Origin: Escherichia phage OliverMaurmann_Bas86
Strand: one strand, 5' to 3'
Sequence record: PQ850622.1
DNA: 64,000 bases
This document shows positions 42,977 through 62,606 of the stretch, in pieces. The position numbers and the translations under genes were made by a program. How positions within the stretch are numbered: position 1 is the first letter of the stretch; every line of letters starts with the position of its first letter. A model generated the notes under the pieces. It ran no database searches. It saw only the letters and a list, made by a program, of their open reading frames with translations, and was not told the DNA's origin.

Positions 42977-43624
42977 TTAACTCTCCAAAGTTTTCTTCAA
43001 AGCTGCCCATGAGATTGGATAGAGTTTAGCCATCTCTTCATCTAATGACTGAGCAAATAGTCGAACTTCATATTGAGCATGGGATGATAGTCGTTGACGA
43101 CACAATTCAAACCAGCCATACAAGCTACCAGTCCAGTACCAAGTAGTTACCATACCTTGAGGTAAAACAAATCTAGCTTGTTCAGGAGCTACGAACTTAA
43201 TCAATTCGTCATAACTAGCAAGAGATGCCTCGTACGCAGAGTTAAACAAAGCTAAAGCTTTTGCCTCTTCCTCCCCTTCAAGAAGTATTCCAGAACCAGA
43301 ATGTAGATCATCTGGACGGGAGAAGATTTCTTTAGGTATGAAAATATCCACTGCTCCATCTTTATATCTACGACTCATCTCGTTCCAAGAAAAACCAACT
43401 TGATGCTTCTGTAACTGTCGTGCAATTGCTATAGGAGCTTCGCATCTGAAGCTCGCTTGTGGGTGACGAAAAGGACTTACGTGTCGTTCCCGAGCTAGAA
43501 AATTTATTAGACGAGTGTCACTTTCTTTTAATTCTTCCCTTTCTACCCCCATAGTTACACGAGCAGCATTGACTACTGTAAGATCTGAACCGAAGTTATC
43601 AATTAATGAAGCTTTGATTGTCAT
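42977..43624 (-). CDS. thyX: Flavin-dependent thymidylate synthase (ThyX)-like protein, divergent signature
   Basis: 215 aa; collinear with ThyX but the RHR....S motif reads KHQVGFSWNEMSRRY. Confidence 0.7.
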   Translation of the reverse strand: MTIKASLIDNFGSDLTVVNAARVTMGVEREELKESDTRLINFLARERHVSPFRHPQASFRCEAPIAIARQLQKHQVGFSWNEMSRRYKDGAVDIFIPKEIFSRPDDLHSGSGILLEGEEEAKALALFNSAYEASLASYDELIKFVAPEQARFVLPQGMVTTWYWTGSLYGWFELCRQRLSSHAQYEVRLFAQSLDEEMAKLYPISWAALKKTLES

Positions 43625-44090
43625 TTATGTAAGTCTCCTTGACTTTATTATATTCCCTAGAGGCTTCTTCTATGGTTGAGAAGAGTCCTATGTGCTTAGA
43701 TTTAAATACCGCCCGGTAAGCAATAGAGCCACTTTTCCTTCTATGGACAGTCACTCCAATCACTCCGGTTGATAAATTATTACTCTGAGCTACTTTGTTT
43801 AGGCCATTTCCTGATCTAGTAGTCCCCCTAAGATTCTCTCTTTTGTTGTTTATCCTGTTGCGGTCTATGTGATCTACTTCTTCAGGAAGCAATCCAGTGT
43901 CCCACCAGTAAGCAAGTCGATGAGCGTAGTATCTAGCACCTTTATAAACGATTCTCAAATACCCATTGGTATTTACAGAACCAGCTATAGACCCTTTGTG
44001 TCCTTTTCCATAAGTTTTAACCCATCGGAAATCTCCAGTCAAAGGGTCGTAATCAAGAGCTTCTTTTATTGACGGGTCAATATCATTCAT
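43599..44090 (-). CDS. HNH homing endonuclease (HNH_3 + AP2-like)
   Basis: 163 aa; YDPLTGDFRW, GYLRIVYKGARYYAHRLAYWW...VDHIDRNRINN. Confidence 0.75.
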   Translation of the reverse strand: MNDIDPSIKEALDYDPLTGDFRWVKTYGKGHKGSIAGSVNTNGYLRIVYKGARYYAHRLAYWWDTGLLPEEVDHIDRNRINNKRENLRGTTRSGNGLNKVAQSNNLSTGVIGVTVHRRKSGSIAYRAVFKSKHIGLFSTIEEASREYNKVKETYINDNQSFIN

Positions 44091-46388: not shown

Positions 46389-46922
46389 TTATACGCCTTT
46401 AGAAGCAACAACCCCATCAGAGTTATTGTAACGACCCTTCACTGCATAGGAATCATCACCAGCGTGAGAGTGTTCAAACATAACCATTTGACCAACACGC
46501 ATCCCAGCACGAACTCGTAAGCTGTGATTGTGGGTAACGTTATGGAACTCAAAGGTTAGCTTACTGCTGTTAAACCCTGCATCAGCCCACCCAGCATGTA
46601 AGTGGTTCAAACCACAACGAGCCATTGAGGAGCGAAGTACAAACAGACTTGAGATGTTATCTGGAAGGTTAAACTCTTCCATTGAGTGCGCTAAGAAGAA
46701 TTGTCCCGGAGTGATGACAATACCATCTTCAGGGATTTTCACCTCTTTCCACTTGAGGTTTTCTTTAGCATCAATGTCAACAATGCCGTCAGCCTGTTCT
46801 TCAACAAGGATAGTATCACCAATACGGATATCCACACTAGCAGCGTTAACATATTTATGCTCCGCATCTAAAAAGCCATTATCAATAACACTGTGTAATT
46901 CTTGAGAACCTAAAAGACTCAT
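46389..46922 (-). CDS. dcd: dCTP deaminase family protein
   Basis: 177 aa; AGWADAGFNSSKLTFEFHN resembles the Dcd/dUTPase-fold GW.D.GF.G....E motif. Confidence 0.75.
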   Translation of the reverse strand: MSLLGSQELHSVIDNGFLDAEHKYVNAASVDIRIGDTILVEEQADGIVDIDAKENLKWKEVKIPEDGIVITPGQFFLAHSMEEFNLPDNISSLFVLRSSMARCGLNHLHAGWADAGFNSSKLTFEFHNVTHNHSLRVRAGMRVGQMVMFEHSHAGDDSYAVKGRYNNSDGVVASKGV

Positions 46923-48367
46923 GAGTTTCTGTTTCCTTGTACAGATGATGCCAAATTGTTAATCATGTTACGAGCTGTTTCACGAGTCAGCGTAACACCT
47001 GCTAAGTTACTATCAAGTTCACCAACTAATTCACGAGCTGTTGCTCGGAGTTCTGCACCAAGTGTAGTGTTAGAATGAGCCAGACCATTACGACGACCGA
47101 CAGGTCGAGGAGTATTGTTAGCATCATTAGCTAAAGATGCAAAACCAATACGAGCAGCTTCACGAGCGGCTATAGCTGCTACCCGATCTTCCGTAGGGGT
47201 TGGCAAATCACCAACTTCTACACGTTCTATATCACTAGAACGTAGACCCTGAACAACAGAGCTAACTGTTTCCCATGAACGACGGGAGCGCTGCAAATCA
47301 CCCATAGATGGAGAAGAAGCAGGTCGAACAGTTACTCCACCTGTATCATGAGTGACGTGCCATGTACGAGTACCCATTCCAGAAGAACGGGCACTACCAA
47401 AACTACCAGTGAAAGTATCACGAGGTGCCTCTGTAGCAGGTGCTGCGAATCTTGTCTGTTGCCAAGAGTCACGTCTGTCAGTTCCCGGAGTCCAAGGCTG
47501 CGTAATTGCTTCAGCACCTATAGTGGTTAATCCGCTAGACCATTCTGTCTGTAGATTAACTTCCTCGTCCAGATAACTACGACCCCTTTCCTGAGGAATG
47601 TTTAATATAGTTTCCATCATCTTCAGGGTATAATGATGACGCTGATTCTGATATAAATTTACACCAGCCATAGGTCCAACTAAATCACTAATCAGGTGAA
47701 CTTCTGGCTCACCGAAAGCTCCCATTGCAAGGTGCATGTATTCAGTAGAACTGCTATAAACTGCAACAGTTGCTTCAGGCCACTTCTTGTGAACATACTT
47801 CATTTCACGACTAGATACCACAGGAATGTCACGAGTGTATGACATTGCAAACAAACCTTCGTTTGACACATACAGATTACCAAGAGTCATAAACCCTTGA
47901 CAGATCATAGGAAAGCGACGGCTTAAAGTATCCATATCCAAAGGTAGATTAATCATCATCTGGATTTTAACTTGATCAATCTCAATTTCCAGAATCTCTT
48001 GGAAAGTGAAAAGCGCTTCAGCATAGGTTGTCCCGTTAACAGGCTGAATTAGTCGAGATGTAACCTGAAGCCCCTTACTTTCTGTCCAAGATAAGAAGTT
48101 GTCAAGGAATAGTGCAGCATTACCTACGTTAGCAGGGCTGTTTTCTTGACGAGTGTTCCAACGAAGCCCTCCTTGAACTAGGAAGATATCAACATCATTC
48201 GGAGTTCTATTTTGAAAGAACGTATCACGGATAGCACCACCTGCAATAACAGGATAGATGCCATCAGGGACTACGTTATCTCTGATCAAATTACGAATCA
48301 GGTCAAGCCCTACACTGAGGGCTTCTCCTTCTTGAAGGTTCAATTCAGATAGTGGAATCTTAATCAT
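46919..48367 (-). CDS. Pol-beta superfamily nucleotidyltransferase (CCA-adding/poly(A) polymerase-like head motif) with Arg/Ser/Thr-rich C-terminal tail
   Basis: 482 aa; VIAGGAIRDTFFQNRTPNDVDIF matches the GG.(V/I)RD...D.D motif; last ~200 aa low-complexity. Confidence 0.55.
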   Translation of the reverse strand: MIKIPLSELNLQEGEALSVGLDLIRNLIRDNVVPDGIYPVIAGGAIRDTFFQNRTPNDVDIFLVQGGLRWNTRQENSPANVGNAALFLDNFLSWTESKGLQVTSRLIQPVNGTTYAEALFTFQEILEIEIDQVKIQMMINLPLDMDTLSRRFPMICQGFMTLGNLYVSNEGLFAMSYTRDIPVVSSREMKYVHKKWPEATVAVYSSSTEYMHLAMGAFGEPEVHLISDLVGPMAGVNLYQNQRHHYTLKMMETILNIPQERGRSYLDEEVNLQTEWSSGLTTIGAEAITQPWTPGTDRRDSWQQTRFAAPATEAPRDTFTGSFGSARSSGMGTRTWHVTHDTGGVTVRPASSPSMGDLQRSRRSWETVSSVVQGLRSSDIERVEVGDLPTPTEDRVAAIAAREAARIGFASLANDANNTPRPVGRRNGLAHSNTTLGAELRATARELVGELDSNLAGVTLTRETARNMINNLASSVQGNRNS

Positions 48368-50737: not shown

Positions 50738-50944
50738 TTAGTAAAACGATCGTATTTCTTCCCACACATCATCTTGCAAGTTTCTAAAACCCTGCAAGGT
50801 TTGCTTTGTTCTGTGAATAAATTCTTCAGAGTGCTTATCAGGTGTGAGCATACTGACAAACTTTTCATAGCGATTAATCTTCCACCGCATCTTCAAGTAG
50901 TCAGATTCCAGCTTTCTTAACTTCTGCCTGTCAGTTACTGTCAT
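50738..50944 (-). CDS. Hypothetical small protein
   Basis: Start refined to the internal ATG (MTVTDRQ...) just after the upstream stop. Confidence 0.3.
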   Translation of the reverse strand: MTVTDRQKLRKLESDYLKMRWKINRYEKFVSMLTPDKHSEEFIHRTKQTLQGFRNLQDDVWEEIRSFY

Positions 50945-51362
50945 CCTTCTCACCTGCCAGATATGCTGTCCAGTCACCAGATTCAACCAGAACATCTTGT
51001 TCTTCGTCGATGTGATAAATCCACGCTTCCACAGTTTCACCGCTGTCCAATAATACTGGAATCAGCGTACGCTTATAAAAGGTGTATGGGTTATCATTGC
51101 CACGGTGACCTTCCAGACCGTCATATGGGCCTTCCAGACCAGCTTGGGTTGTTTCAAAGACTTCTACACGAACAGGCTTACCATTGCTGTCATGCTCCAA
51201 AGATACACTTGGGAAGTATGCTGTGCAATACTGATACAGGTTACAGTTGTTTACTGTCCACCCTTCACCAATAGACACACCACCTGCACGAGCATTGATA
51301 GCATGGTTGTGTTGACCTTTTCTCAAGCTTCCGTAAGTTGCAACTAGTACTTTATCAGACAT
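50931..51362 (-). CDS. Gamma-glutamyl cyclotransferase-like (AIG2/GGCT fold) protein
   Basis: 143 aa; N-terminal VATYGSLRKG (YGSL hallmark) and later acidic residues. Confidence 0.65.
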   Translation of the reverse strand: MSDKVLVATYGSLRKGQHNHAINARAGGVSIGEGWTVNNCNLYQYCTAYFPSVSLEHDSNGKPVRVEVFETTQAGLEGPYDGLEGHRGNDNPYTFYKRTLIPVLLDSGETVEAWIYHIDEEQDVLVESGDWTAYLAGEKDDSN

Positions 51363-51428
51363 TATATTACCTTTTAGTGTTTCAGTTAAATTCGAACTAG
51401 CCTCCTCTTTCGAAGAGGCTAAAGCAAA

Positions 51429-51614
51429 TTATTCTACTTCGAAGTGTTTGATCACACCAGTCAACACATCAGATTGGAATGTACCCACTAGCTCTGTACC
51501 TCGGAAGAAGTTAACACTTGTTCCAAGTGATTCAAAGCGATCTGCTTGAATGTCCAGAGATTGAATATTTCCTTCTGCTGACATTGTACGAAACATGATT
51601 GTGTATTTATTCAC
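51429..51614 (-). CDS. Hypothetical small protein
   Basis: 61 aa ORF. Confidence 0.3.
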   Translation of the reverse strand: MNKYTIMFRTMSAEGNIQSLDIQADRFESLGTSVNFFRGTELVGTFQSDVLTGVIKHFEVE

Positions 51615-51853
51615 AGACTTGTTACTCCCTTATCTGCTTGTGCAATTGCGATGATACGCTCAGCACATTCCATTGAATATTTATCACCTCGTTTGAGGAA
51701 GGTGATGATTGCAGAGAACTGATTACCAATCATTCTCTTATTTGTGATACCGAACTCTTCACAGAGTTGGTTGATAGCTTTACGAGAGCCTACAATCAGA
51801 GGCTCTTTTTCTTCGGTCATTCCACGGCTGATCAAATCTTCGATAGACAACAT
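51611..51853 (-). CDS. Hypothetical protein
   Basis: 80 aa ORF. Confidence 0.4.
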   Translation of the reverse strand: MLSIEDLISRGMTEEKEPLIVGSRKAINQLCEEFGITNKRMIGNQFSAIITFLKRGDKYSMECAERIIAIAQADKGVTSL

Positions 51854-51879
51854 TACAAATTCCTTTTTGTTTAATTTAA

Positions 51880-53115
51880 TTACAGAGTTACTGCTACTTC
51901 GCTACCTTCAACATTGACAGACTCTAACTTGCGAGGGTTATGAATCTGTACCGGATTAACCGGAACGTTCCAACCACTACGGTAGAAGTTACGACCATCA
52001 CAGAACAAAATGACATTGGCAGACATTGCATTCGGTTGCAGGTTGTTATGGACATGACGGATATCTGCAATCCAATAACCACGAGACAAAGTGTAACCAG
52101 TAGGTGCATTACGAATAGTTTGAGTATTCATCTGACCTTCCAGTTGCATCTCTTCAGGAACTACATCTACCGAATCAACTGGCTGTGCTACCTGATCTTC
52201 CAGTGCAAAGTTTTCATCATTAGCGCTTTCGCTGTCATCTACCAACTCACCGTCTCCATCTTCAATCGGAGTCTGGTAAACCACTTTATACTGAGGAGTA
52301 TAGAGAGGGTTCTGAGCTTTAACAAACTCAAGGATGTTATGGCGGTAGGTATCCAGAGTTGTACCAGTCAGGCCCGGTGCTGTATTAACTTCCAGTACCC
52401 ACGCTTCTTGACCTTTGGTGATAATATCAACTGCACCGAAATCCAGACCCATTGATTCAACAGCTTTCACCGCATTGATCAGAGAGGCGTCATTCGGAGC
52501 ATCTGTGAAGGAGCTTGAGTAAACCCAGCCAGTGTGGTGATTACGAATATCTTCACGATAGTTAGGGTCTTCGCGATAACCATTGCGACGAATCTTCTTC
52601 TGAACATAGGTGATTACACCTTTGAACACATGAACACGCCACTCACGACGTGGGCCTTGAATGCCTTTAGTGTACAGTTCAGCTCGACCAAGACCATCAC
52701 CCGGTTCTACAACAACAATACCCGAACCAGAGTGACCAGTCAGCTCATGGCGCTCATACACAATATTACCAGTGTTTGACCACTCCTGAGCAGTCTCTTG
52801 AACATCTGTGTATTCCACAGTTTTAACACCTGCTTGGTCCATCACACTGAAAGCACGACGTTTGTTCGCTGCCATATATAAGGCTGCGGTACGGTTAAGG
52901 ACGGTTGCAGAACCAAAGAATGATTCAGGATAGCGACGGTTCCCGTAGTTAACAACCACATCACCTTCACGAGAACGCCAGCGGCTATTCTCTGAAAGAA
53001 GACCCATCACGTTAGCATTGATGCGTTCATCACGGATAGTATCACTGATAGCAGATACTAGAGCGTTAACAGAATCAGACGGGCCATACGGAAGAACACG
53101 GATACGAGTAGTCAT
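51880..53115 (-). CDS. ATP-grasp enzyme (RimK-like ligase) with extra C-terminal domain
   Basis: 411 aa; ELTGHSGSGIVVV, EWRVHVFKG, WVLEVNTAPGL; acidic linker then ~120-aa C-terminal region. Confidence 0.85.
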   Translation of the reverse strand: MTTRIRVLPYGPSDSVNALVSAISDTIRDERINANVMGLLSENSRWRSREGDVVVNYGNRRYPESFFGSATVLNRTAALYMAANKRRAFSVMDQAGVKTVEYTDVQETAQEWSNTGNIVYERHELTGHSGSGIVVVEPGDGLGRAELYTKGIQGPRREWRVHVFKGVITYVQKKIRRNGYREDPNYREDIRNHHTGWVYSSSFTDAPNDASLINAVKAVESMGLDFGAVDIITKGQEAWVLEVNTAPGLTGTTLDTYRHNILEFVKAQNPLYTPQYKVVYQTPIEDGDGELVDDSESANDENFALEDQVAQPVDSVDVVPEEMQLEGQMNTQTIRNAPTGYTLSRGYWIADIRHVHNNLQPNAMSANVILFCDGRNFYRSGWNVPVNPVQIHNPRKLESVNVEGSEVAVTL

Positions 53116-53117
53116 TT

Positions 53118-53348
53118 TTAGATACCTTTTAGTTTAAGAATTTCGTTACGACAGGATTGAATTTTAGCTTCGATTGCCCAATACTCAGCGAACATTTCGT
53201 CTTCTTGGGCATCGCTTGGAGAGTCAATTAAGTTAAAAGCAAACGGATACAGCTTTCGCTGCTCCGTTACCAGTTGTTGAAGTCGGAGTTGTTGATACTC
53301 CAGCATTGTCAGGTGAGGCTTAGCTCCCTTGCTTGACATGAGGCTCAA
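53118..53348 (-). CDS. Hypothetical small protein
   Basis: 76 aa ORF. Confidence 0.35.
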   Translation of the reverse strand: MSLMSSKGAKPHLTMLEYQQLRLQQLVTEQRKLYPFAFNLIDSPSDAQEDEMFAEYWAIEAKIQSCRNEILKLKGI

Positions 53349-53553
53349 CTTTAATCCCCTTCATTTTAACATAGTCAGCCAACACGTTATTGATAACGGT
53401 TGGAAAAGGGATTTCTACTGGAGAGTCAACCAGCTTCCCAATACCTTCTTGCATCCACTTCTGGATTGCTCGGAGGTTATCACATCCTGTGCTTGTCATC
53501 GGAATACGGCGGGTAGTTACCACGTTATCCAACATCAGTTTACGAACTTCCAT
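53320..53553 (-). CDS. Hypothetical small protein
   Basis: 77 aa ORF. Confidence 0.35.
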   Translation of the reverse strand: MEVRKLMLDNVVTTRRIPMTSTGCDNLRAIQKWMQEGIGKLVDSPVEIPFPTVINNVLADYVKMKGIKVEPHVKQGS

Positions 53554-53564
53554 AACTATACCTC

Positions 53565-55598
53565 TTAGTGTTTACCTTTACAGTAATCTGAATTACAGAT
53601 CACCCTGTTTTCTTTGTTCAGTGAGCAAGTTTCTGCATCACGCCACGGAATTTGTTTATAACAGACTGCACAAAACCCAATTGAAGTCCAGAGGGCTTTT
53701 GTAAACTCAGCTGTTCGTTGTCCATCGTAACTGACAACTGTTTTTCGGAGAGAGGTTGACTTTTCTGGAAATGTCTCCGCTTTCTCAGCGGGTACCTCCT
53801 TTGGGGCATTCTTTGGACCATAAACAGAGATGGCATAAGTATCACCACCACGTTTTTCCAAATACGAATTAGGAACATCTGCAAGTGTGATGTCCCCTGA
53901 ACGTTTTGCTGAGCTGACCATTACAATCATACGGCTAAGCATACGTTCATCAACACGAACAGCTACTTCAGGACGACGTGGGTTGGTTGTGTCTACTGCT
54001 TTAGTCCAAATATAACCTTCAGATAGAGTAACATTCTTTACTTTATCTTTGATTTCTTTGGAGCAGATATAACAAACGTCTTCACCACGAAGTTTACTCA
54101 TTTCGTTGTCAAACTCGAAATCAGTCTTGACTTCACCACAGATAGCACATACACCCAAAGGCACATCTTCTTCCTCTTCAGAGGTTTTAGATAACGCTTC
54201 GAAGCATTCTGGATGCCAGTATGCCTGATAAGCAAACACAGCCTTACGAGCATCTTTCCAGTCAATGTGCTTATCACAACCACCACAGTCACCATGAGAG
54301 TGAGATTCCCAGAACTTACGAGTGACTTCTACACCATTCTTAGTGATGAAGGAGTCCTCTGCATCAAAAGGGATATCATCATCAAAATCAGCAGTAGTGC
54401 TTTGAGGCTCCTTATCTGTAGCATCAACAAACAGCCCTGAAGTTAGTACGAGGCGAATCATACTGTCCACTTCGGAGATACAAGCGATTGTCCCGCGATA
54501 TACTACCTTTGGGTTTTCAAGAGCCTTAAGATATTCATCTTTGGCTACGTTGTGAACATCCCCTTCGACATACTCTTGGGCTTTATCATCGTAGATGTAA
54601 CCAACCATCTTACCACGATCTGTGTTGTTATAAGCATGGAACTCGTGAGGAGTAATATCCACACGACCATCACGACGATAAGGAAGACCACGATCGGCAG
54701 CCAGTTTGTTCTGGTCTTCAATCGCTTTACGACGACGAATGTCTCCGCTTGTCACGCCGGGCTTGTCGTCTTTGTTTCCGTAAATGTCGCTTGTGCTGCT
54801 GCTTGGTTTGTTTGTCTGTTGGTTCTGATAAAGAGAGGAGTTCGAGTAATAGCCGCCCCAGCGACTCGTTACCGTAAAAACCGGAAGCTTGTGCTCCACC
54901 TCTTGAACCAGAGTCATACGACTGTTAGACACATCAAAGATATACTCAGTTCCCACTTTACACTCGAAGTGGTCATTGATACGGTTCTTGTGGGATTTAG
55001 AACGCTCTAAAATCCACATAAGCATAGCTTCTTCAGAAGCCCCAAACCAATCCAAACCACAGCGGGCTAGGTGGAAAGGACGCTCATCATTACGGATAAT
55101 GTGAAGCGTGTTGTCTTTAGCATCATGCCAAATCAAAGTGAATGCACCATCCAGTTTTTGGATAGTCTCTGCTGCTCCAATGGTGTTAATTGAGTGGCAG
55201 ATGTTTTCACTATCAACTTCGAAACGCTTACTGTCAGGAAGGAGATCTTGATCTAACAGGGTTCCATTATGAACCAGAGTAATATCCCCGTGAGTAAATG
55301 GGTGAGCATTTCGAGCATTGACAGCCCCACGAGTGGCATGTCGGCTGTGACCAACAATCCACGAAGGAGGAACTACGTAGTTCGTAAGCCCTTTGGTAAT
55401 ATTTGTATATTCTGTCTGGAGCATAAAAGCATAAGAAGGAAGAGCTTCTTTATAAGAGAAGACTTGCTTTTCACCTTTACGCTGACCAAACACACCAGTT
55501 GAGTGCTGTCCACGGAAAACACCAGCATACAGAAGTTGGTTGAAAATGTCCAAATCTGCTGAGGTCATGTTGCCGCCAGCTAATACGATACCACAAAT
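53565..55598 (-). CDS. Class-II (Ntn-type) glutamine amidotransferase domain protein with Cys-rich C-terminal region; predicted ATT start
   Basis: IVGHSRHATRGAVNARNAHPF resembles the GlmS-type motif. Frame is open 10 codons upstream of the ATG, encoding (start)-CGIVLAGGN; ATT at 55598-55596 sits 7 nt after AGGTGGA. Confidence 0.75.
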   Translation of the reverse strand: MCGIVLAGGNMTSADLDIFNQLLYAGVFRGQHSTGVFGQRKGEKQVFSYKEALPSYAFMLQTEYTNITKGLTNYVVPPSWIVGHSRHATRGAVNARNAHPFTHGDITLVHNGTLLDQDLLPDSKRFEVDSENICHSINTIGAAETIQKLDGAFTLIWHDAKDNTLHIIRNDERPFHLARCGLDWFGASEEAMLMWILERSKSHKNRINDHFECKVGTEYIFDVSNSRMTLVQEVEHKLPVFTVTSRWGGYYSNSSLYQNQQTNKPSSSTSDIYGNKDDKPGVTSGDIRRRKAIEDQNKLAADRGLPYRRDGRVDITPHEFHAYNNTDRGKMVGYIYDDKAQEYVEGDVHNVAKDEYLKALENPKVVYRGTIACISEVDSMIRLVLTSGLFVDATDKEPQSTTADFDDDIPFDAEDSFITKNGVEVTRKFWESHSHGDCGGCDKHIDWKDARKAVFAYQAYWHPECFEALSKTSEEEEDVPLGVCAICGEVKTDFEFDNEMSKLRGEDVCYICSKEIKDKVKNVTLSEGYIWTKAVDTTNPRRPEVAVRVDERMLSRMIVMVSSAKRSGDITLADVPNSYLEKRGGDTYAISVYGPKNAPKEVPAEKAETFPEKSTSLRKTVVSYDGQRTAEFTKALWTSIGFCAVCYKQIPWRDAETCSLNKENRVICNSDYCKGKH

Positions 55599-55675
55599 TT
55601 TCTAATCCACCTGAAGGGTAAACCCTTTCATCTAATTAACCTTTAAATGCGCCCTGTATAAGAGCGCCCGTTGTG

Positions 55676-56776
55676 TTACAGCAGTCGTTCTAATTGCATT
55701 TCCAGAAGGTCTGGAATATAACCAGTGACGTTATCATCACTGCTACCTGATTCACGCATCAATGCAAACATGTGACGAATTTCACGAACCGTTGCGATTC
55801 GAGTGCTTTCAATCTGAGGGGTGTAGTAGGTCATGATCTCTTCGTAGACACTGTTGGCATTACCGCGCACATATCCCAAGAAACCATAGAAGTCATTCAT
55901 ATCACGTAAGTTGATAAGGACTTCACCATCAGGGCCAGTCTGTTGCACACGAACACGACCAACCAAAGTCACAGATTGCTCACGACAGAAGAGAATATCA
56001 CGAGCAAGACGATACCCTTCAGTGAGATCACTGTCTCTTGGAGTATAGTCTAGGGGTAGATGTTGAATCATAGGAGCGAAGCGCAGCTCATTCAACTTCT
56101 CAACATAAGCTTCATTGTCTAAATCTGCATATTCAACAGCCAGTTTCTTGAGAACCAAGAAGCGGTTGACCAGATTCAGAAGTTGGCTCTTTTTCCACTT
56201 CGGCTCTGAGATACGGAACTCAACAGAACCAAATTGAGATAGAGGCAAAAGATTAAGGGAGGTATATTTATCCCAGCTATTAACAAGAGAGTGGAAGAAA
56301 GCTTCCCCGTCTCGGTTGAACGCTGACGAAGCATTCATAACTTGTGCTTGAACGACAGCAAAAGCTGGACAGAAGTTGCTACGATAGCGATGGTATCCAG
56401 AACATTTGAACATCATCTTTTCATAGAACGTCCATCCAAGAATAACTTTCTTAAGGATGTTACTATCAGCGTCACGCATATCCATATGAACATGAGTGGA
56501 GCAGCGCCAAGTTCCCTCGGCTCCAGAATCCTGTACTGCTTCACTCAGATTGTTAATAGCACGAAGTAATTCTTCACCGTTGTAAGGTCGTGCACATACT
56601 AATTCACAACCATCACGAAGAGAGCCATCTTCAGTACAAACCCACATATCAGCGTCAATGTCAGTTGTACCTTCGACTTCTAACTCAATACCAACACCAC
56701 ACTGAAAAGCAATACTTGGATGCGGTTCAGATAAGCGAGGGTTACGGTATCCAAAAACTTGTGCTACGGTTGTCAT
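55676..56776 (-). CDS. Glutamine synthetase-like amidoligase (carboxylate-amine ligase)
   Basis: 366 aa; GIELEVEG, STHVHMDM, GSVEFRISEP. Confidence 0.55.
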   Translation of the reverse strand: MTTVAQVFGYRNPRLSEPHPSIAFQCGVGIELEVEGTTDIDADMWVCTEDGSLRDGCELVCARPYNGEELLRAINNLSEAVQDSGAEGTWRCSTHVHMDMRDADSNILKKVILGWTFYEKMMFKCSGYHRYRSNFCPAFAVVQAQVMNASSAFNRDGEAFFHSLVNSWDKYTSLNLLPLSQFGSVEFRISEPKWKKSQLLNLVNRFLVLKKLAVEYADLDNEAYVEKLNELRFAPMIQHLPLDYTPRDSDLTEGYRLARDILFCREQSVTLVGRVRVQQTGPDGEVLINLRDMNDFYGFLGYVRGNANSVYEEIMTYYTPQIESTRIATVREIRHMFALMRESGSSDDNVTGYIPDLLEMQLERLL

Positions 56777-57399
56777 AATGATTCCACCAACTCTACATTA
56801 TATGATGACAGGTCTGAAGAAATATGCTTGAACTTCTCCAGAAGGTTTAAAGATTGACGACCATTGTCGCCATAACCAGCTTCAAGAAGCACGTTTCCAA
56901 CGTAAGCCCCTTTGTAATAAACTTTTCCATCGACAGGATTGATATAGATGAAACGAGTAACCAACCCTTCAAACTCTGGATTAAACAGGTTGTACACCAA
57001 TTCACCCGGAATCGAACGACCGAGAGAAGGAGGTGCACCGCGAAGTTTGTTTCCCATCAAACCTTTAGCTCTCTGACGAACAGGGTTGATATGGGTCCAG
57101 CTCACCATGTTATTGCCATGCTGAAGGTATCCTACATCTGGAGATTCCAGAATAAGGCTGTGATCAAACACTGGTATATTGCTAACAATCTGACGTTCAA
57201 ACTGACCTTCAGAGTTTTTAGTCCAACGTTCTGCCTCAAACACTAAAGACATTTCAGCGTCGTGTGAGTAGTCGTCGATATCAAAGTTACCTTGCTGACG
57301 AACATCAAGCACATATAGAGGGAGGTTTTTACCATCAGGTGATCGCTGAGCAATCCATGTTCCACAATAATAGTGTTGAAAATCTCTTAACAAGCTCAC
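56773..57399 (-). CDS. Hypothetical protein within amidoligase cluster
   Basis: 208 aa; GTG start with AAGGTGA RBS. Confidence 0.45.
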   Translation of the reverse strand: MSLLRDFQHYYCGTWIAQRSPDGKNLPLYVLDVRQQGNFDIDDYSHDAEMSLVFEAERWTKNSEGQFERQIVSNIPVFDHSLILESPDVGYLQHGNNMVSWTHINPVRQRAKGLMGNKLRGAPPSLGRSIPGELVYNLFNPEFEGLVTRFIYINPVDGKVYYKGAYVGNVLLEAGYGDNGRQSLNLLEKFKHISSDLSSYNVELVESL

Positions 57400-57408
57400 A
57401 ATATCACC

Positions 57409-58218
57409 TTATACAATCTGGAGTTTAGAGGAGAATTTATCCGCTTCTTTAACATCGTTGCTGTTGATGATGTTATGAAGCTTTTCGATTGGAAGACGAG
57501 AGTGAAGTGACATCAACACTTCCATATCACAGCCTTGAACAACCTTATCCACTTGCTCATAAACAAACTTGCGGGTTGACTTCTCACCAATCCAGAAGTT
57601 AGAAAGAGAACGATATTCAATACCGTAGTCCTTGTAACGAATAGCAGAAGCCTTTCCGTACAACTCTTTACGACGAGTGTCTTTATCCATGATTACAGCT
57701 GGCAAGGACAGGAAGTAATCACACAGCACACCCAACATCATTTGAGTTTGTCGATTGATCTCCAAAGTTCCAGAGACACCGAGGTGCACATGGCCCCCAG
57801 CAGTACGCAAACCTTTATCGGTTGCGACTGGTGAAGGGTTCTTTTGTCCAGTGAAGGCGTTGAAATCAGGAGTACAGCCAAATACAAAAGCTGACGGATG
57901 GAATGATTCAAGCTCTTCTGAAGTGAACACATGAGAGCTAATCCCAAGCGCTGCTTCCAGACCACGATCATTCAGGATTTTGTTAGTCAGATCAATACCG
58001 CGCTGAATATTATCATCAAACGCTTCAAACCCTTTCTGTGGGTTAATATCAAACTCAGCCAGAACGTTGTCTTCTTGAAGACGAACATCAGGAGCCAGAT
58101 CAATTTTGTTATCTTTAGAACATCCCAGCTTACCAGCCACAGAGGTGATAATACCGGAAGCAGTACGAACAAACATTTCCGGATCCGACCCTATTAAGAA
58201 TTTACGTTTAGTAGTCAT
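57409..58218 (-). CDS. Second GS-like COOH-NH2 ligase (phage amidoligase type)
   Basis: 269 aa; GSDPEMF and GGHVHLG. Confidence 0.5.
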   Translation of the reverse strand: MTTKRKFLIGSDPEMFVRTASGIITSVAGKLGCSKDNKIDLAPDVRLQEDNVLAEFDINPQKGFEAFDDNIQRGIDLTNKILNDRGLEAALGISSHVFTSEELESFHPSAFVFGCTPDFNAFTGQKNPSPVATDKGLRTAGGHVHLGVSGTLEINRQTQMMLGVLCDYFLSLPAVIMDKDTRRKELYGKASAIRYKDYGIEYRSLSNFWIGEKSTRKFVYEQVDKVVQGCDMEVLMSLHSRLPIEKLHNIINSNDVKEADKFSSKLQIV

Positions 58219-58685
58219 GCTTTAGTCCAACCTTTATGAGATAGATAGTTTTTAAATCTGCCACTGTGCACAGCGCCCATGTGGCCTTGATGTAAGTCGT
58301 TGCTTCTACAGAAGTCTCTAAGATTGTATATTGTTACAACCTCGCCATCTGGAGATCTAAACTTCCAAAATCTAGCATTCCCTTTCACAGCGTTTTCTTC
58401 ACTGGTCAGAAGTTGGAAATTACTTGGGTGGTTATTAAGTTTATCGCCATCGATGTGATCAACAGTCATACCATCCGGAATAGGCCCAATAAACAATTCA
58501 TACATAAGTCTATGTAATAAAAAGTTCCTTGTTATCTTTTCAGGAGCCTGAACTGTTGTAAACTTAAGATAACCATCTTTATCAGGAAACAGTTTCCTCT
58601 GTTTCCCTGTTCTTGCATGGAATATACTACCGTCTTCGAACACCAAGAAGGTAGCAACTCCGACTACTAACTCCCTAAATTCCAT
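58215..58685 (-). CDS. HNH homing endonuclease inserted in amidoligase cluster
   Basis: 156 aa; HRLMYELFIGPIPDGMTVDHIDGDKLNNHPSNFQLLTSEEN. Confidence 0.75.
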   Translation of the reverse strand: MEFRELVVGVATFLVFEDGSIFHARTGKQRKLFPDKDGYLKFTTVQAPEKITRNFLLHRLMYELFIGPIPDGMTVDHIDGDKLNNHPSNFQLLTSEENAVKGNARFWKFRSPDGEVVTIYNLRDFCRSNDLHQGHMGAVHSGRFKNYLSHKGWTKA

Positions 58686-58709
58686 AGAGAGCCAATAAGG
58701 AAAGCACGC

Positions 58710-59660
58710 TTAGTCATTGTAATACTCCACGAGTTCATCAAAAAGGGAAACAACACGAGCACCAGCTTCTTCTGGTGTCATTGAGGAAGGTACTGCTTGC
58801 ATCAGTCGTTCGATAAAACTGCGAACAGTGATTCTGTCCATACGCTGATCTAATACTTCTCGCTTGTGACCTGCACAAGTTGACCAGAGACGCAACCACT
58901 CACTCATACTTTCATAATGGTCAGGGTCTTGGTCACGACGGCGTGCCATACGACGGAGAACTCCATCATTATGGTTTCGTACATAACCATCTCGGTTATC
59001 ATCAACACCGAACACATTCTGAACCCATACGTTTTCAGAAAATTCATCAGTGGTGCAAATTAGTGGCAGAAATGCAATTGCACTCATGTCACCATCAAAA
59101 TAAGTCGCTGCTGACTCATCGGTTGAGTCTACGTCATTACTATAACACCAGCGACCAAAGAAGTTACGACTTAAACCAGCTAAGCGTAGAGCTAAACCGA
59201 TTCGTTGTCGCTTAAGCAACTCTTCCTTGTCTTGTACGCCTTCCTGAAGGAACTCCATTCCATTAAAATCACCATCCAAATAGCTACGGATGGTCATTAG
59301 TCCAGTAAACACCTTGTCTGCTGGATGGTTTCGAAGGTTCACGGCAATGGAGTTCACCGAAGTGACAGAGAACATATCTTTATAGCAAGACATTGAGTTA
59401 AAAATGTCTGTTGCTTCAACTAAAGCTCTTTCGATATCTTTAGCCGGCACGCCATAAAAATTGTGAGGCCAGAAGTTAATAACTTCAATTTCTGAAGTTC
59501 TGTCACGAAGGCTTGTTCGGTTACGACTTTCACCGTTAATGTCTGTAACAGAATACATGTGCATACAGTTAAAAGTACCAAAGCAAGCTCTTCCTTTGAA
59601 CACTGACTCACCGAAATCCTCTGCCGGTGTTACCGGAGCAATCGATGCGGAGATTGACAT
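58710..59660 (-). CDS. Hypothetical protein within amidoligase cluster
   Basis: 316 aa ORF. Confidence 0.45.
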   Translation of the reverse strand: MSISASIAPVTPAEDFGESVFKGRACFGTFNCMHMYSVTDINGESRNRTSLRDRTSEIEVINFWPHNFYGVPAKDIERALVEATDIFNSMSCYKDMFSVTSVNSIAVNLRNHPADKVFTGLMTIRSYLDGDFNGMEFLQEGVQDKEELLKRQRIGLALRLAGLSRNFFGRWCYSNDVDSTDESAATYFDGDMSAIAFLPLICTTDEFSENVWVQNVFGVDDNRDGYVRNHNDGVLRRMARRRDQDPDHYESMSEWLRLWSTCAGHKREVLDQRMDRITVRSFIERLMQAVPSSMTPEEAGARVVSLFDELVEYYND

Positions 59661-59668
59661 ATTCGCCT

Positions 59669-60886
59669 CTATTTATTAAAGAATAATTTTTCCATAATGG
59701 TTTCCCACTCTTCTGAGGGGAGGGTTGAGAACCCGTTTCCGTGAAGCCTGTTTGTCATGCAACTAATAATATTGTACATGTTGTAGCTTCGGGTGGATTC
59801 TGTTCCATTGTTCCAGTTATAACCGAAAACAATTTTATCGAAGGAGGTTTTATCCGTAGTTACTTCTCGGATGAACTCAACCAAGAGCGATTTCTCTGTG
59901 ATGACCGCACGTTCACCATCTGGCAGATTACAATACTGAGGAAGAAGGATTGGTAAGAACATCGAATTGTTCACTCGACAATCGCGCACACCTTCACTGC
60001 GATAGATTAGGCTTGAGAAGTCTTCATCACGCAGGTGTCCTTCACCTTCAGTGTATTCACACTGTCGCCATTTGGTCTGGCGAGGTTCAACCATTGTACT
60101 ACCAACGCCTACTGTATACAGAGACGCTTGGAAGATACATGAATCGTAATCATTCCCTGTTAAAGCAACTTGCTCATTGCCGAACACATCCACTGAAGAG
60201 TTGATCAGTCGGCTGAATGCAAGAGAGGCTAAAGGGGACCAACCTTTCTTATACATCTTGTTCAACATTTCATACACAGCAGATTTTTCATCATCTGTAT
60301 AGAATGTACGATTCAGCATCAGATAGAACAGAGCGCGATCAGCAGGACAACCATCAGTACAAACACCCATGAATCCTACTTCATGCCATACCAGACATGA
60401 GTCAGAATCCTTATCCATGAATGCTTCAAAGGCTTCCATTACAGCCCTGTCAGTAACATCAGGACGGTTGTTTTCTTCTGCCCATGTTTCTACATGAGAA
60501 GGAGGACGAGGGTCTCCATTCTCCACCCCTTCGCGGAAATATTGAGTGGTAATAGGCTTTTTATCACCATAACGTTTTACACCATAAGCGGGAAGGTGTG
60601 TACCAGAGTTCCAGATGTACTTAATTTCGGACATAGGCATCATGTTTTCAAGAACGTTCTCTTCAGCAGTGCCTTGACGAACCATCATATTTTCACTCCA
60701 CACCTTAATGCGGATATTCCAGCCGTAGTTGCTGTCATACGTGTTATAATAATCAGGATCACCATCTTCATCTTCATCATAATCACCACCCTGATAGTAA
60801 CCTGCTTTCAGGAAACCATAACAAGGAGGCCAGATGGTTACAACATCATCTGATTCTTTCCAGCTTTGAAGTGTTACAGGGAACAT
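59669..60886 (-). CDS. Hypothetical protein within amidoligase cluster
   Basis: 405 aa; acidic DYDEDEDGDPDYY stretch near N-terminus. Confidence 0.45.
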   Translation of the reverse strand: MFPVTLQSWKESDDVVTIWPPCYGFLKAGYYQGGDYDEDEDGDPDYYNTYDSNYGWNIRIKVWSENMMVRQGTAEENVLENMMPMSEIKYIWNSGTHLPAYGVKRYGDKKPITTQYFREGVENGDPRPPSHVETWAEENNRPDVTDRAVMEAFEAFMDKDSDSCLVWHEVGFMGVCTDGCPADRALFYLMLNRTFYTDDEKSAVYEMLNKMYKKGWSPLASLAFSRLINSSVDVFGNEQVALTGNDYDSCIFQASLYTVGVGSTMVEPRQTKWRQCEYTEGEGHLRDEDFSSLIYRSEGVRDCRVNNSMFLPILLPQYCNLPDGERAVITEKSLLVEFIREVTTDKTSFDKIVFGYNWNNGTESTRSYNMYNIISCMTNRLHGNGFSTLPSEEWETIMEKLFFNK

Positions 60887-60897
60887 CTTTTACCTCT

Positions 60898-61260
60898 TTA
60901 CTCTGCTACCAAAAGGCTCAGAGATTTGCGAATGTAGTCAATACTACGGAAGTTTCGATAGTTCTCTTGGAAGCGCATTTTTTCAAACTCTGCTTCCTGA
61001 AGCTCTACCTCTGCTGCTTTATATCCTGATAAAGCTAAACTTACCACATCCTGAGGTAAGGTATTACGACGGCGAATAAGATATTTATTCGCTTTTAGTT
61101 TACCTTGTGCACGAGCCATTTTGGCCTTTGCCGCCTTGATACCATGAGAAATCCAAAGCAGTTGCTGTTTCAGATCTTCCTCATCCATACCACCTAAATC
61201 ATTTGCTACTTTATGAAGCGTAGACAGGTTCACATGGCCTTTAATGGGGCGTAGGTTCAT
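60898..61260 (-). CDS. Hypothetical protein
   Basis: 120 aa, helical/basic. Confidence 0.45.
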   Translation of the reverse strand: MNLRPIKGHVNLSTLHKVANDLGGMDEEDLKQQLLWISHGIKAAKAKMARAQGKLKANKYLIRRRNTLPQDVVSLALSGYKAAEVELQEAEFEKMRFQENYRNFRSIDYIRKSLSLLVAE

Positions 61261-62177: not shown

Positions 62178-62606
62178 TTAAACAACAAATTGGAACGCTT
62201 CGTATCCAAACTTGTATGAGAAGTCATGCTTGAATTTCACTACACGACCACGATCACGGAAAGATTTCAGACGACTAATAAAGCCAGCCATCGGCTCAGG
62301 GTCAATAGGGCTACGAATCTTCATAGCTACAGAGTGCAGCTTGAAGCGTTTACCAGTGCTACAGGCCATCATCACATACTCCATACGAGTAGTCCAGATG
62401 TTGAGCACCATGCTTGTTTTCTCCGCTGACCAACCAGTCTTGCGGGCGATTTCTTTATGGACATTAAGCTCCAAAGGAAGAGGGAATTGCTTGTTGAATG
62501 AAGCCGGATATAGCTTGACCAGAAGGTCAATGTTTTCTTTATACGTTAAGTAAGCCAATTTCTTGCTTACGTTAGGGAATTTCCCAGACATTTTTTGAAG
62601 CTCCAA
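62178..62606 (-). CDS. ProQ/FinO-domain-like protein (possible RNA chaperone)
   Basis: 142 aa; LVKLYPASFNKQFPLPLEL...GWS...VLNIWT...GKRFKL loosely follows the ProQ N-terminal pattern as recalled. Confidence 0.35.
   Translation of the reverse strand: MELQKMSGKFPNVSKKLAYLTYKENIDLLVKLYPASFNKQFPLPLELNVHKEIARKTGWSAEKTSMVLNIWTTRMEYVMMACSTGKRFKLHSVAMKIRSPIDPEPMAGFISRLKSFRDRGRVVKFKHDFSYKFGYEAFQFVV

Follow-up and report, generated by a model that had tools for sequence, protein, structure and literature searches.

The 64,000-nucleotide stretch of Escherichia phage OliverMaurmann_Bas86 analyzed here (PQ850622.1; hereafter the window) carries, between positions 50738 and 60886, a minus-strand cluster that is the already-described phiEco32-type amidoligase, or peptidoglycan-modification, cassette, and its identification is a rediscovery. 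On the basis of profile searches, the cluster contains the co-linear ATP-grasp, Amidoligase_2, COOH-NH2_lig type 2 and class-II glutamine amidotransferase (GATase) genes that define this type. We tentatively read the cassette, at a probability of about 0.35, as a pathway that would place an amide-linked adduct on a non-DNA acceptor, with a peptidoglycan precursor as the first choice. Our additions to the earlier descriptions are modest and comprise a conserved AUU start of the amidotransferase gene, a phage-only protein family (X) that is nearly mutually exclusive with peptidase C26, the placement of a further phage-only protein (Y) among the core components, and an apparent restriction of the cassette to viruses.

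According to later papers that cite them, two studies described the phiEco32/LUZ24/RIO-1 cassette computationally (Iyer et al. 2009 Mol Biosyst; Hardies et al. 2013 J Virol), and the published hypothesis is peptidoglycan side-chain modification or superinfection exclusion. The cassette has been annotated routinely since then, and in the literature consulted, up to 2026, only these two sets of predictions are cited for its function. This agrees with an earlier reading of the window made from the letters alone (the sequence-only reading), which held that such gene sets had been noted only computationally in phiEco32-like phages and which made no mention of the published hypothesis. Compared over its full length, the 10-kb region shows 97.3% identity to Escherichia phage vB_EcoP_SU7; the BASEL phage Bas87 shares 99% identity with it, and about 90 more Escherichia and Shigella podophages match it less closely. 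On the basis of these identities, the window is the genome of an E. coli podophage of the Gordonclarkvirinae (phiEco32-like), in which the cassette is followed by primase/helicase, exonuclease, nucleotidyltransferase and dCTP deaminase genes.

All open reading frames (ORFs) of the cluster lie on one strand, as the sequence-only reading had it, and this is the minus strand. The fold assignments of that reading held up in profile searches, with five Pfam families above their curated cut-offs and the ATP-grasp protein supported by PHROG, NCBIfam and PDB. The carboxylate-amine ligase L2 (57409–58218, 269 residues; COOH-NH2 ligase type 2, GS/GCS fold) matched COOH-NH2_lig (PF14395) with 33.8 bits against a cut-off of 25, and the GS-like ligase L1 (55676–56776, 366 residues) matched Amidoligase_2 (PF12224) with 34.2 bits against a cut-off of 22. 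Four motifs of L2 are invariant over eight lineages (Q..D....E, GC.PD.N, R....H.H.G and YG.E.R), while an N-terminal DPE is kept in most lineages without being invariant. In L1, the invariant residues are E.E, S, E, H.H, R, FC, N and E.R. As judged from these alignments, the conserved acidic, histidine and arginine residues of both ligases are probably of the metal- and phosphate-site type found in GS/GCS-fold ligases; sequence and profile searches of L1 and L2 against PDB returned no solved relative. The third ligase (51880–53115, 411 residues) is an ATP-grasp protein related to the RimK/MptN/CofF alpha-L-glutamate ligases. It matched PHROG 2599 over its full length (E 6e-169), RimK in PDB (0.0024), and the MptN (6e-9), RimK (3e-6) and CofF families of NCBIfam far below their equivalog cut-offs, whereas its Pfam RimK score of 19.6 bits falls just under the cut-off of 21. 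The protein has an LEVN Mg-ATP (E-x-N) motif, a variable C-terminal extension and a weak similarity to D-Ala-D-Ala ligases in the NCBIfam search, and it is predicted to adopt the ATP-grasp fold without being an ortholog of RimK. Finally, an accessory gene encodes an AIG2/GGACT-type gamma-glutamyl cyclotransferase (GGCT; 50931–51362, 143 residues), which scored 59 bits for GGACT against a cut-off of 22.8 and shows a YGSL motif at residues 10–13 and a VEVFE segment with the conserved glutamate. No transmembrane-like segment was found in any cassette protein, and a PADLOC search gave no matches for the cassette.

The glutamine amidotransferase (53565–55598, 677 residues) scored 53.8 bits for GATase_6 against a cut-off of 27, and PDB and NCBIfam searches place it with the PurF/GlmS-type N-terminal nucleophile (Ntn) enzymes and not with the GGT type; a weak match to EgtC (0.0063) was also obtained. 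Its ORF had been listed from an ATG at 55568, which leaves the protein without an N-terminal nucleophile. Ten codons upstream, at 55598, the sequence reads ATT-TGT-GGT-ATC, and this ATT (codon 55596–55598) lies two codons after a stop and 7 nucleotides after a Shine-Dalgarno-like GGTGGA, giving a product that begins MCGIVLAGG. Every amidotransferase homolog begins with MCG[IV], and a cysteine as residue 1 after removal of the methionine is present only with the ATT start. Since only this start encodes the Ntn cysteine, we place the start of the gene at the ATT at 55598 and not at the ATG at 55568. The ATT and its GGTGGA-N7 leader recur unchanged in relatives of the Kuravirus, KBNP1711 and ECBP2 types, with protein identities of no more than 68–70%, indicating that AUU initiation is conserved; in the Kuravirus and KBNP1711 types, ORF calling finds a canonical start only about 50–110 codons downstream. 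The ATT start is conserved in all Gordonclarkvirinae loci examined and occurs also in loci L006 (~8690) and L007 (~8360). Homologs in K4 (Zobellviridae) and in a Rhizobium phage likewise have an ATT or ATC directly before the catalytic cysteine codon, and their annotated starts truncate the cysteine. The conservation of the ATT start suggests that translation of the amidotransferase may be under control. The C-terminal domain of the enzyme carries three CxxC zinc-finger-like motifs that are absent in marine and crAss-like versions, and searches of its C-terminal ~440 residues against Pfam, NCBIfam and PDB gave no synthase or acceptor domain, only a sub-threshold LIM match. A 77-residue protein (53320–53553) follows the amidotransferase in four lineages (Gordonclarkvirinae, 7-11, Vp_R1 and tf) and has a variable C-terminus. 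A strand (TRKVPMT) followed by two helices gives it a possible resemblance to ribbon-helix-helix DNA-binding proteins.

The sequence-only reading had also noted three sizeable proteins of no recognizable family, and X1 (59669–60886, 405 residues), X2 (58710–59660, 316 residues) and Y (56773–57399, 208 residues) indeed gave no sequence or profile match in Pfam, NCBIfam, PADLOC or PDB; in NCBIfam, only the amidotransferase and the ATP-grasp protein were matched within the cassette. The predicted structures of X1 and X2 are confident models without a solved structural relative, and the BFVD relatives of X2 are only uncharacterized proteins of the cassette-bearing phages GAP52, LAh_8, CW02, CVT22, 4_4572 and Vp_R1. 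Upon clustering of the ORFs upstream of L2 in 88 loci, X2 joined gp106 and gp107 of phage 7-11 and many marine proteins of about 310 residues. A profile of this widened cluster aligned to the X1 family over 114 columns with 95.1% probability (E 3e-8), although narrow alignments of the two families compared with hhalign gave only 16 columns and a probability of 0.8%, so that the relationship becomes clear only once the X2 family is widened. On the basis of the widened alignment, X1 and X2 are paralogs of one widespread phage-only family. They share the blocks PAD[RK]..F..LM..R and Q.....G[HY].R, and the family has invariant cysteine, aspartate, arginine and histidine residues, which in X1 are C22, D183, R184, H284 and R286. 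In many lineages, a member of the family directly precedes the type-2 ligase gene. The ORFs of about 300 residues upstream of the ligase in LUZ24/tf-type (tf_17, tf_18) and crAss-type phages showed no hhalign link to the X family.

Co-occurrence was counted over 87 loci, which are phylogenetically non-independent. The X family is present in 34 loci and a peptidase C26/class-I amidotransferase gene in 44, both lie upstream of L2, and they occur together in one locus only. GGCT is found in 26 of the 34 X loci and is absent from 36 of the 44 C26 loci, and only one of the 87 has none of the three genes X, peptidase C26 and GGCT. Both peptidase C26 and GGCT belong to enzyme types that cleave gamma-glutamyl bonds. 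The near-exclusivity of X and C26 hints at analogous roles, a lead only given the non-independence of the loci. Y was found in 84 of 88 loci and always stands between the two GS-like ligases, here with its stop overlapping the L1 start, indicating a core component. The Y family is small, with 34 representative clusters among 1.84 billion proteins.

In order to count the components, iterative hidden Markov models were used to scan 88 loci from six or more phage lineages. L2 and L1 were found in all 88 loci, the amidotransferase in 86, the ATP-grasp protein in 82, GGCT in 43 and the small protein after the amidotransferase in 21. The order X-L2-Y-L1-amidotransferase-ATP-grasp-(GGCT) is nearly fixed across these loci. 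Genes for primase/helicase, DNA polymerase and nucleotide metabolism normally follow a few kb downstream of the cassette, with RNR, ThyX and dCMP deaminase genes as neighbors in many loci. About 5 kb upstream of the cassette, Salmonella phage 7-11 carries ribose-phosphate pyrophosphokinase and nicotinamide phosphoribosyltransferase genes (L002, 1990–4553). In several marine loci without GGCT, the ATP-grasp gene is followed by a member of an unannotated family of about 245 residues with no Pfam match (L087, 10797–11534, and 10 others), which may be an alternative accessory component.

The gene set had been regarded as rare for a phage, a view that does not survive wider sampling. A tblastn search with the type-2 ligase identified 311 of 50,697 phage records, with Gram-negative hosts listed, and a pattern scan of IMG/VR found relatives in at least 568 viral contigs. 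The 311 records include Gordonclarkvirinae, Grimontviridae (7-11, Vp_R1, Privateer), LUZ24-like and tf phages, Zobellviridae (CW02, K4/PA11), a rhizobial phage, a crAss-like phage and others. A pattern scan of 100,044 bacterial and archaeal species, each represented by one genome, yielded 14 loci only, nearly all on contigs of metagenome-assembled genomes together with one 1.1-kb isolate scaffold, and no contig among them exceeds 68 kb. Apart from the 1.1-kb scaffold, all carry the same cassette, about half with phage replication genes too, and all 14 look like phage contigs; no bona fide bacterial chromosome with the cassette was found among the species scanned. Within the sensitivity of the pattern scan, the cassette is apparently virus-restricted. 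Two of the genome records are probably phage contamination, namely a Kuravirus-like contig, with a ligase 79% identical, that was assigned to a 'Peptococcaceae' metagenome-assembled genome, and the 1.1-kb fragment in a Herbiconiux daphne assembly (L089/L090). The ligase of 'Poriferisphaera phage ZRK32' (OP650935) is about 40% identical to that of the window and ranks among those of LUZ24-like Pseudomonas phages; an eLife paper proposed that the cassette consists of auxiliary genes for nitrogen metabolism.

Given the known chemistry of the families involved (GS, GCS, PafA and PuuA; RimK, MptN, CofF, GshB and Ddl; PurF, GlmS, AsnB and EgtC; GGCT, GGACT and BtrG), the parts list fits amide or isopeptide formation from glutamate, glutamine or ammonia followed by gamma-glutamyl trimming. 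We propose a soluble cytoplasmic pathway in which three ATP-dependent carboxylate-amine ligases, two of the GS/GCS fold and one RimK/MptN-like ATP-grasp enzyme, would assemble a short Glu/Gln-type (gamma-glutamyl or isopeptide) adduct that would be amidated and trimmed on a non-DNA acceptor during middle infection. The Ntn amidotransferase would either supply ammonia to amidate an activated carboxylate or act as an EgtC-like gamma-glutamyl amidohydrolase. Gamma-glutamyl removal would be carried out by GGCT in this phage and by peptidase C26 in other lineages, and X1, X2 and Y would probably serve in acceptor recognition or scaffolding. We infer the chemistry, the order of the steps and, above all, the acceptor. 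For such an adduct, the first-choice acceptor would be a cytoplasmic peptidoglycan stem-peptide precursor, the published idea, and the second choice a host or phage protein. When all possibilities are ranked together, the peptidoglycan precursor leads, though we still consider it doubtful as an individual candidate; a free metabolite is somewhat less probable, a protein less so again, some other acceptor rather unlikely, and DNA or a nucleotide the least likely.

Because peptidoglycan precursors are found in the cytoplasm, the peptidoglycan idea is compatible with soluble enzymes, and the Gram-negative hosts listed also agree with it. In a directed-evolution experiment with a Pseudomonas phage, both evolved lines (15 and 30 rounds) acquired missense mutations in the amidoligase and amidotransferase genes, indicating that the cassette appears to matter for fitness on hosts. 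Nevertheless, several points weigh against a peptidoglycan-directed pathway. The idea is drawn by analogy, and no Mur-ligase, transpeptidase or membrane component was found in the cassette. No bacterial counterparts of L2, X and Y were found, which would be odd in a copy of a cellular cell-wall pathway. The cassette lies amid replication and nucleotide-metabolism genes in nearly every lineage, a setting that suits a DNA role equally. Additionally, the BASEL paper reports that Gordonclarkvirinae are unusually resistant to restriction-modification systems.

The alternative closest in probability, which we consider possible though not favored, is that the cassette makes a free small molecule such as a glutathione-like gamma-glutamyl peptide, a polyamine or amino-acid conjugate or a glutamylated cofactor tail, which could serve nucleotide metabolism, DNA packaging or counter-defence. 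The combination of a GCS fold, an ATP-grasp enzyme, an Ntn hydrolase and GGCT mirrors glutathione synthesis and the gamma-glutamyl cycle, the best NCBIfam matches of the ATP-grasp protein are the cofactor alpha-glutamate ligases MptN and CofF, and peptidase C26, of the PuuD and gamma-glutamyl hydrolase family, is present in half of the loci (44 of 87). The RNR, ThyX and dCMP deaminase neighbors would also suit such a product. However, the hosts already produce glutathione and polyamines, the cassette contains no transporter or thiol-dependent partner, and X1, X2 and Y, as three phage-only proteins of non-enzyme-like appearance, are hard to place in a small-molecule pathway. Another alternative is Pup-like or RimK-like tagging, in which a small protein tag or a poly-Glu tail would be attached to host or phage proteins. 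We regard this as unlikely. The GS-fold ligases include PafA and Dop, the ATP-grasp protein is nearest to RimK, the S6 glutamate ligase, and several small ORFs lie inside the cassette; yet three ligases and an amidotransferase exceed what tagging needs, and the small ORFs end in QGS, KGI, TSL and EVE, with no conserved C-terminal GG[QE]. The only broadly conserved one, the 77-residue protein, has variable termini and the ribbon-helix-helix-like pattern, and the others are clade-specific. The Pup-like form of a tag was rejected, as no small ORF has a conserved GG[QE] C-terminus.

The least probable of the alternatives, to which we give little credence, is that the cassette decorates phage DNA or a deoxynucleoside triphosphate precursor with an amino-acid- or peptide-type group, with the X proteins as a new class of base-modifying transferase. 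Such decoration would explain the restriction resistance of the Gordonclarkvirinae, for which the 2025 BASEL paper knows of no DNA-modification pathway, and it would suit a cassette that, in Gordonclarkvirinae, LUZ24-like, Zobellviridae and crAss-like phages, is embedded among the genes of the replication module. Pfam amidoligase and amidotransferase genes also co-occur with thymidine-hypermodification genes in some viral contigs (Lee et al. 2022), the zinc-finger-like motifs of the amidotransferase are followed by the ribbon-helix-helix-like protein, and the X family, having no solved fold relative, could be a new transferase. Against this, 11 of 16 restriction enzymes were reported to cut the DNA of U17, a LUZ24-like phage with the same cassette, and anomalies of sequencing or modification were not met in the literature consulted on these phages. 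The zinc-finger-like motifs are missing from the marine and crAss-like amidotransferases. A Pfam scan of the cassette and 20 other ORFs of the window, with some small ORFs outside it, gave no match to a dUMP hydroxymethylase, TET/JBP, 5-HMUDK or aGPT-Pplase; the latter two were not recognized because the ORFs of unknown function matched no Pfam family. The thymidylate synthase ThyX, which the sequence-only reading had called divergent, is canonical (Pfam Thy1, E 5e-43), and ThyX together with the dCTP deaminase is an ordinary route of dTTP supply. On balance, the amide-adduct pathway on a non-DNA acceptor remains our preferred reading.

The remaining genes of the cluster are small or mobile. 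An HNH_3 homing endonuclease gene (58215–58685; Pfam HNH_3, 62.5 bits) separates X2 from L2 and is outside the pathway. The sequence-only reading took it for an insertion, and this is borne out by its presence in SU7 (100% coverage) and its absence from Bas87, where the flanking genes abut. HNH genes are inserted at other points of the cassette in other lineages (UFV-P2 and a Rhizobium phage), and a second HNH_3 gene of the window (43599–44090) adjoins ThyX. A 76-residue ORF (53118–53348) and two ORFs of 80 and 61 residues (51429–51853) are clade-specific, and a small ORF of 68 residues, according to the Bas87 annotation (50738–50944), lies between GGCT and the primase/helicase gene. Directly upstream of the cassette, a 120-residue ORF (60898–61260, minus strand; phrog_11370) is co-conserved in Gordonclarkvirinae and in loci L013 and L014. 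The promoter motif TAATGTATA of the phage sigma factor was not found in the cluster, and scans of the cluster for consensus promoters and terminators showed no useful enrichment. Elsewhere in the window, a 482-residue protein (46919–48367) is called a nucleotidyltransferase by PHROGs only, has no Pfam match and adjoins the bona fide dCTP deaminase (46389–46922); according to the BASEL authors, a DNA modification might originate from these two proteins. A 142-residue ORF (62178–62606) scored 25.9 bits for a ProQ/FinO domain against a cut-off of 27 and may encode an RNA chaperone in the early region.

The cassette takes up 8 to 10 kb, which in some genomes of 45 kb is as much as a fifth of the whole, and its gene order is kept across six phage groups (Gordonclarkvirinae, Grimontviridae, LUZ24-like, Zobellviridae, rhizobial and crAss-like phages). 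Identifying its product would establish a new virus-specific chemistry, be it directed at the cell wall, a protein, a metabolite or DNA, and would assign a role to two or more protein families that lack a known fold. Should DNA decoration prove true, X would be a new class of base-modifying transferase and restriction resistance would be explained. Direct testing is now possible, as Bas87, 99% identical here, grows on an engineered E. coli K-12.

Among known systems, the thymidine hypermodification clusters defined by 5-HMUDK and aGPT-Pplase (Lee et al. 2022) are likewise phage multi-enzyme clusters near replication genes, but their defining kinase, pyrophosphorylase and hydroxymethylase were not found among the window ORFs scanned. 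MurT/GatD and AsnB/LtsA likewise combine a carboxylate-activating enzyme with a glutamine amidotransferase acting on a cytoplasmic precursor. In contrast, the ligases of the cassette are of the GS fold and the ATP-grasp type, with no Mur-ligase domain (Pfam) or PP-loop synthetase, and a class-I GATase/peptidase C26 gene occurs only in other lineages. In butirosin (BtrJ/BtrG) and ergothioneine (EgtA/EgtC) biosynthesis, ATP-dependent gamma-glutamyl ligation is paired with later removal, which is carried out by an AIG2-type cyclotransferase in the BtrG case and by a hydrolase of the class-II amidotransferase fold in the EgtC case. The likeness to the cassette, which has no carrier protein, pyridoxal phosphate enzyme or sulfoxide synthase, is one of analogy only. 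The gamma-glutamyl cycle and glutathione synthesis (GshA, GshB, GGT and GGCT) combine the same four fold classes, and the cassette differs in having two GS-like ligases, phage-only proteins and a PurF/GlmS-type Ntn enzyme. The closest counterpart is the phiEco32/LUZ24/RIO-1 cassette, which has the same families in the same order and whose type example belongs to the same subfamily as the window. UFV-P2 and tf also show this order (ORF-ORF-COOH-NH2_lig-ORF-Amidoligase_2-GATase-small-ATP-grasp-AIG2-primase/helicase). Compared with the phiEco32/LUZ24/RIO-1 cassette, the local features of the window are two X paralogs instead of one, the HNH insertion, the zinc-finger-extended tail of the amidotransferase and its ATT start.

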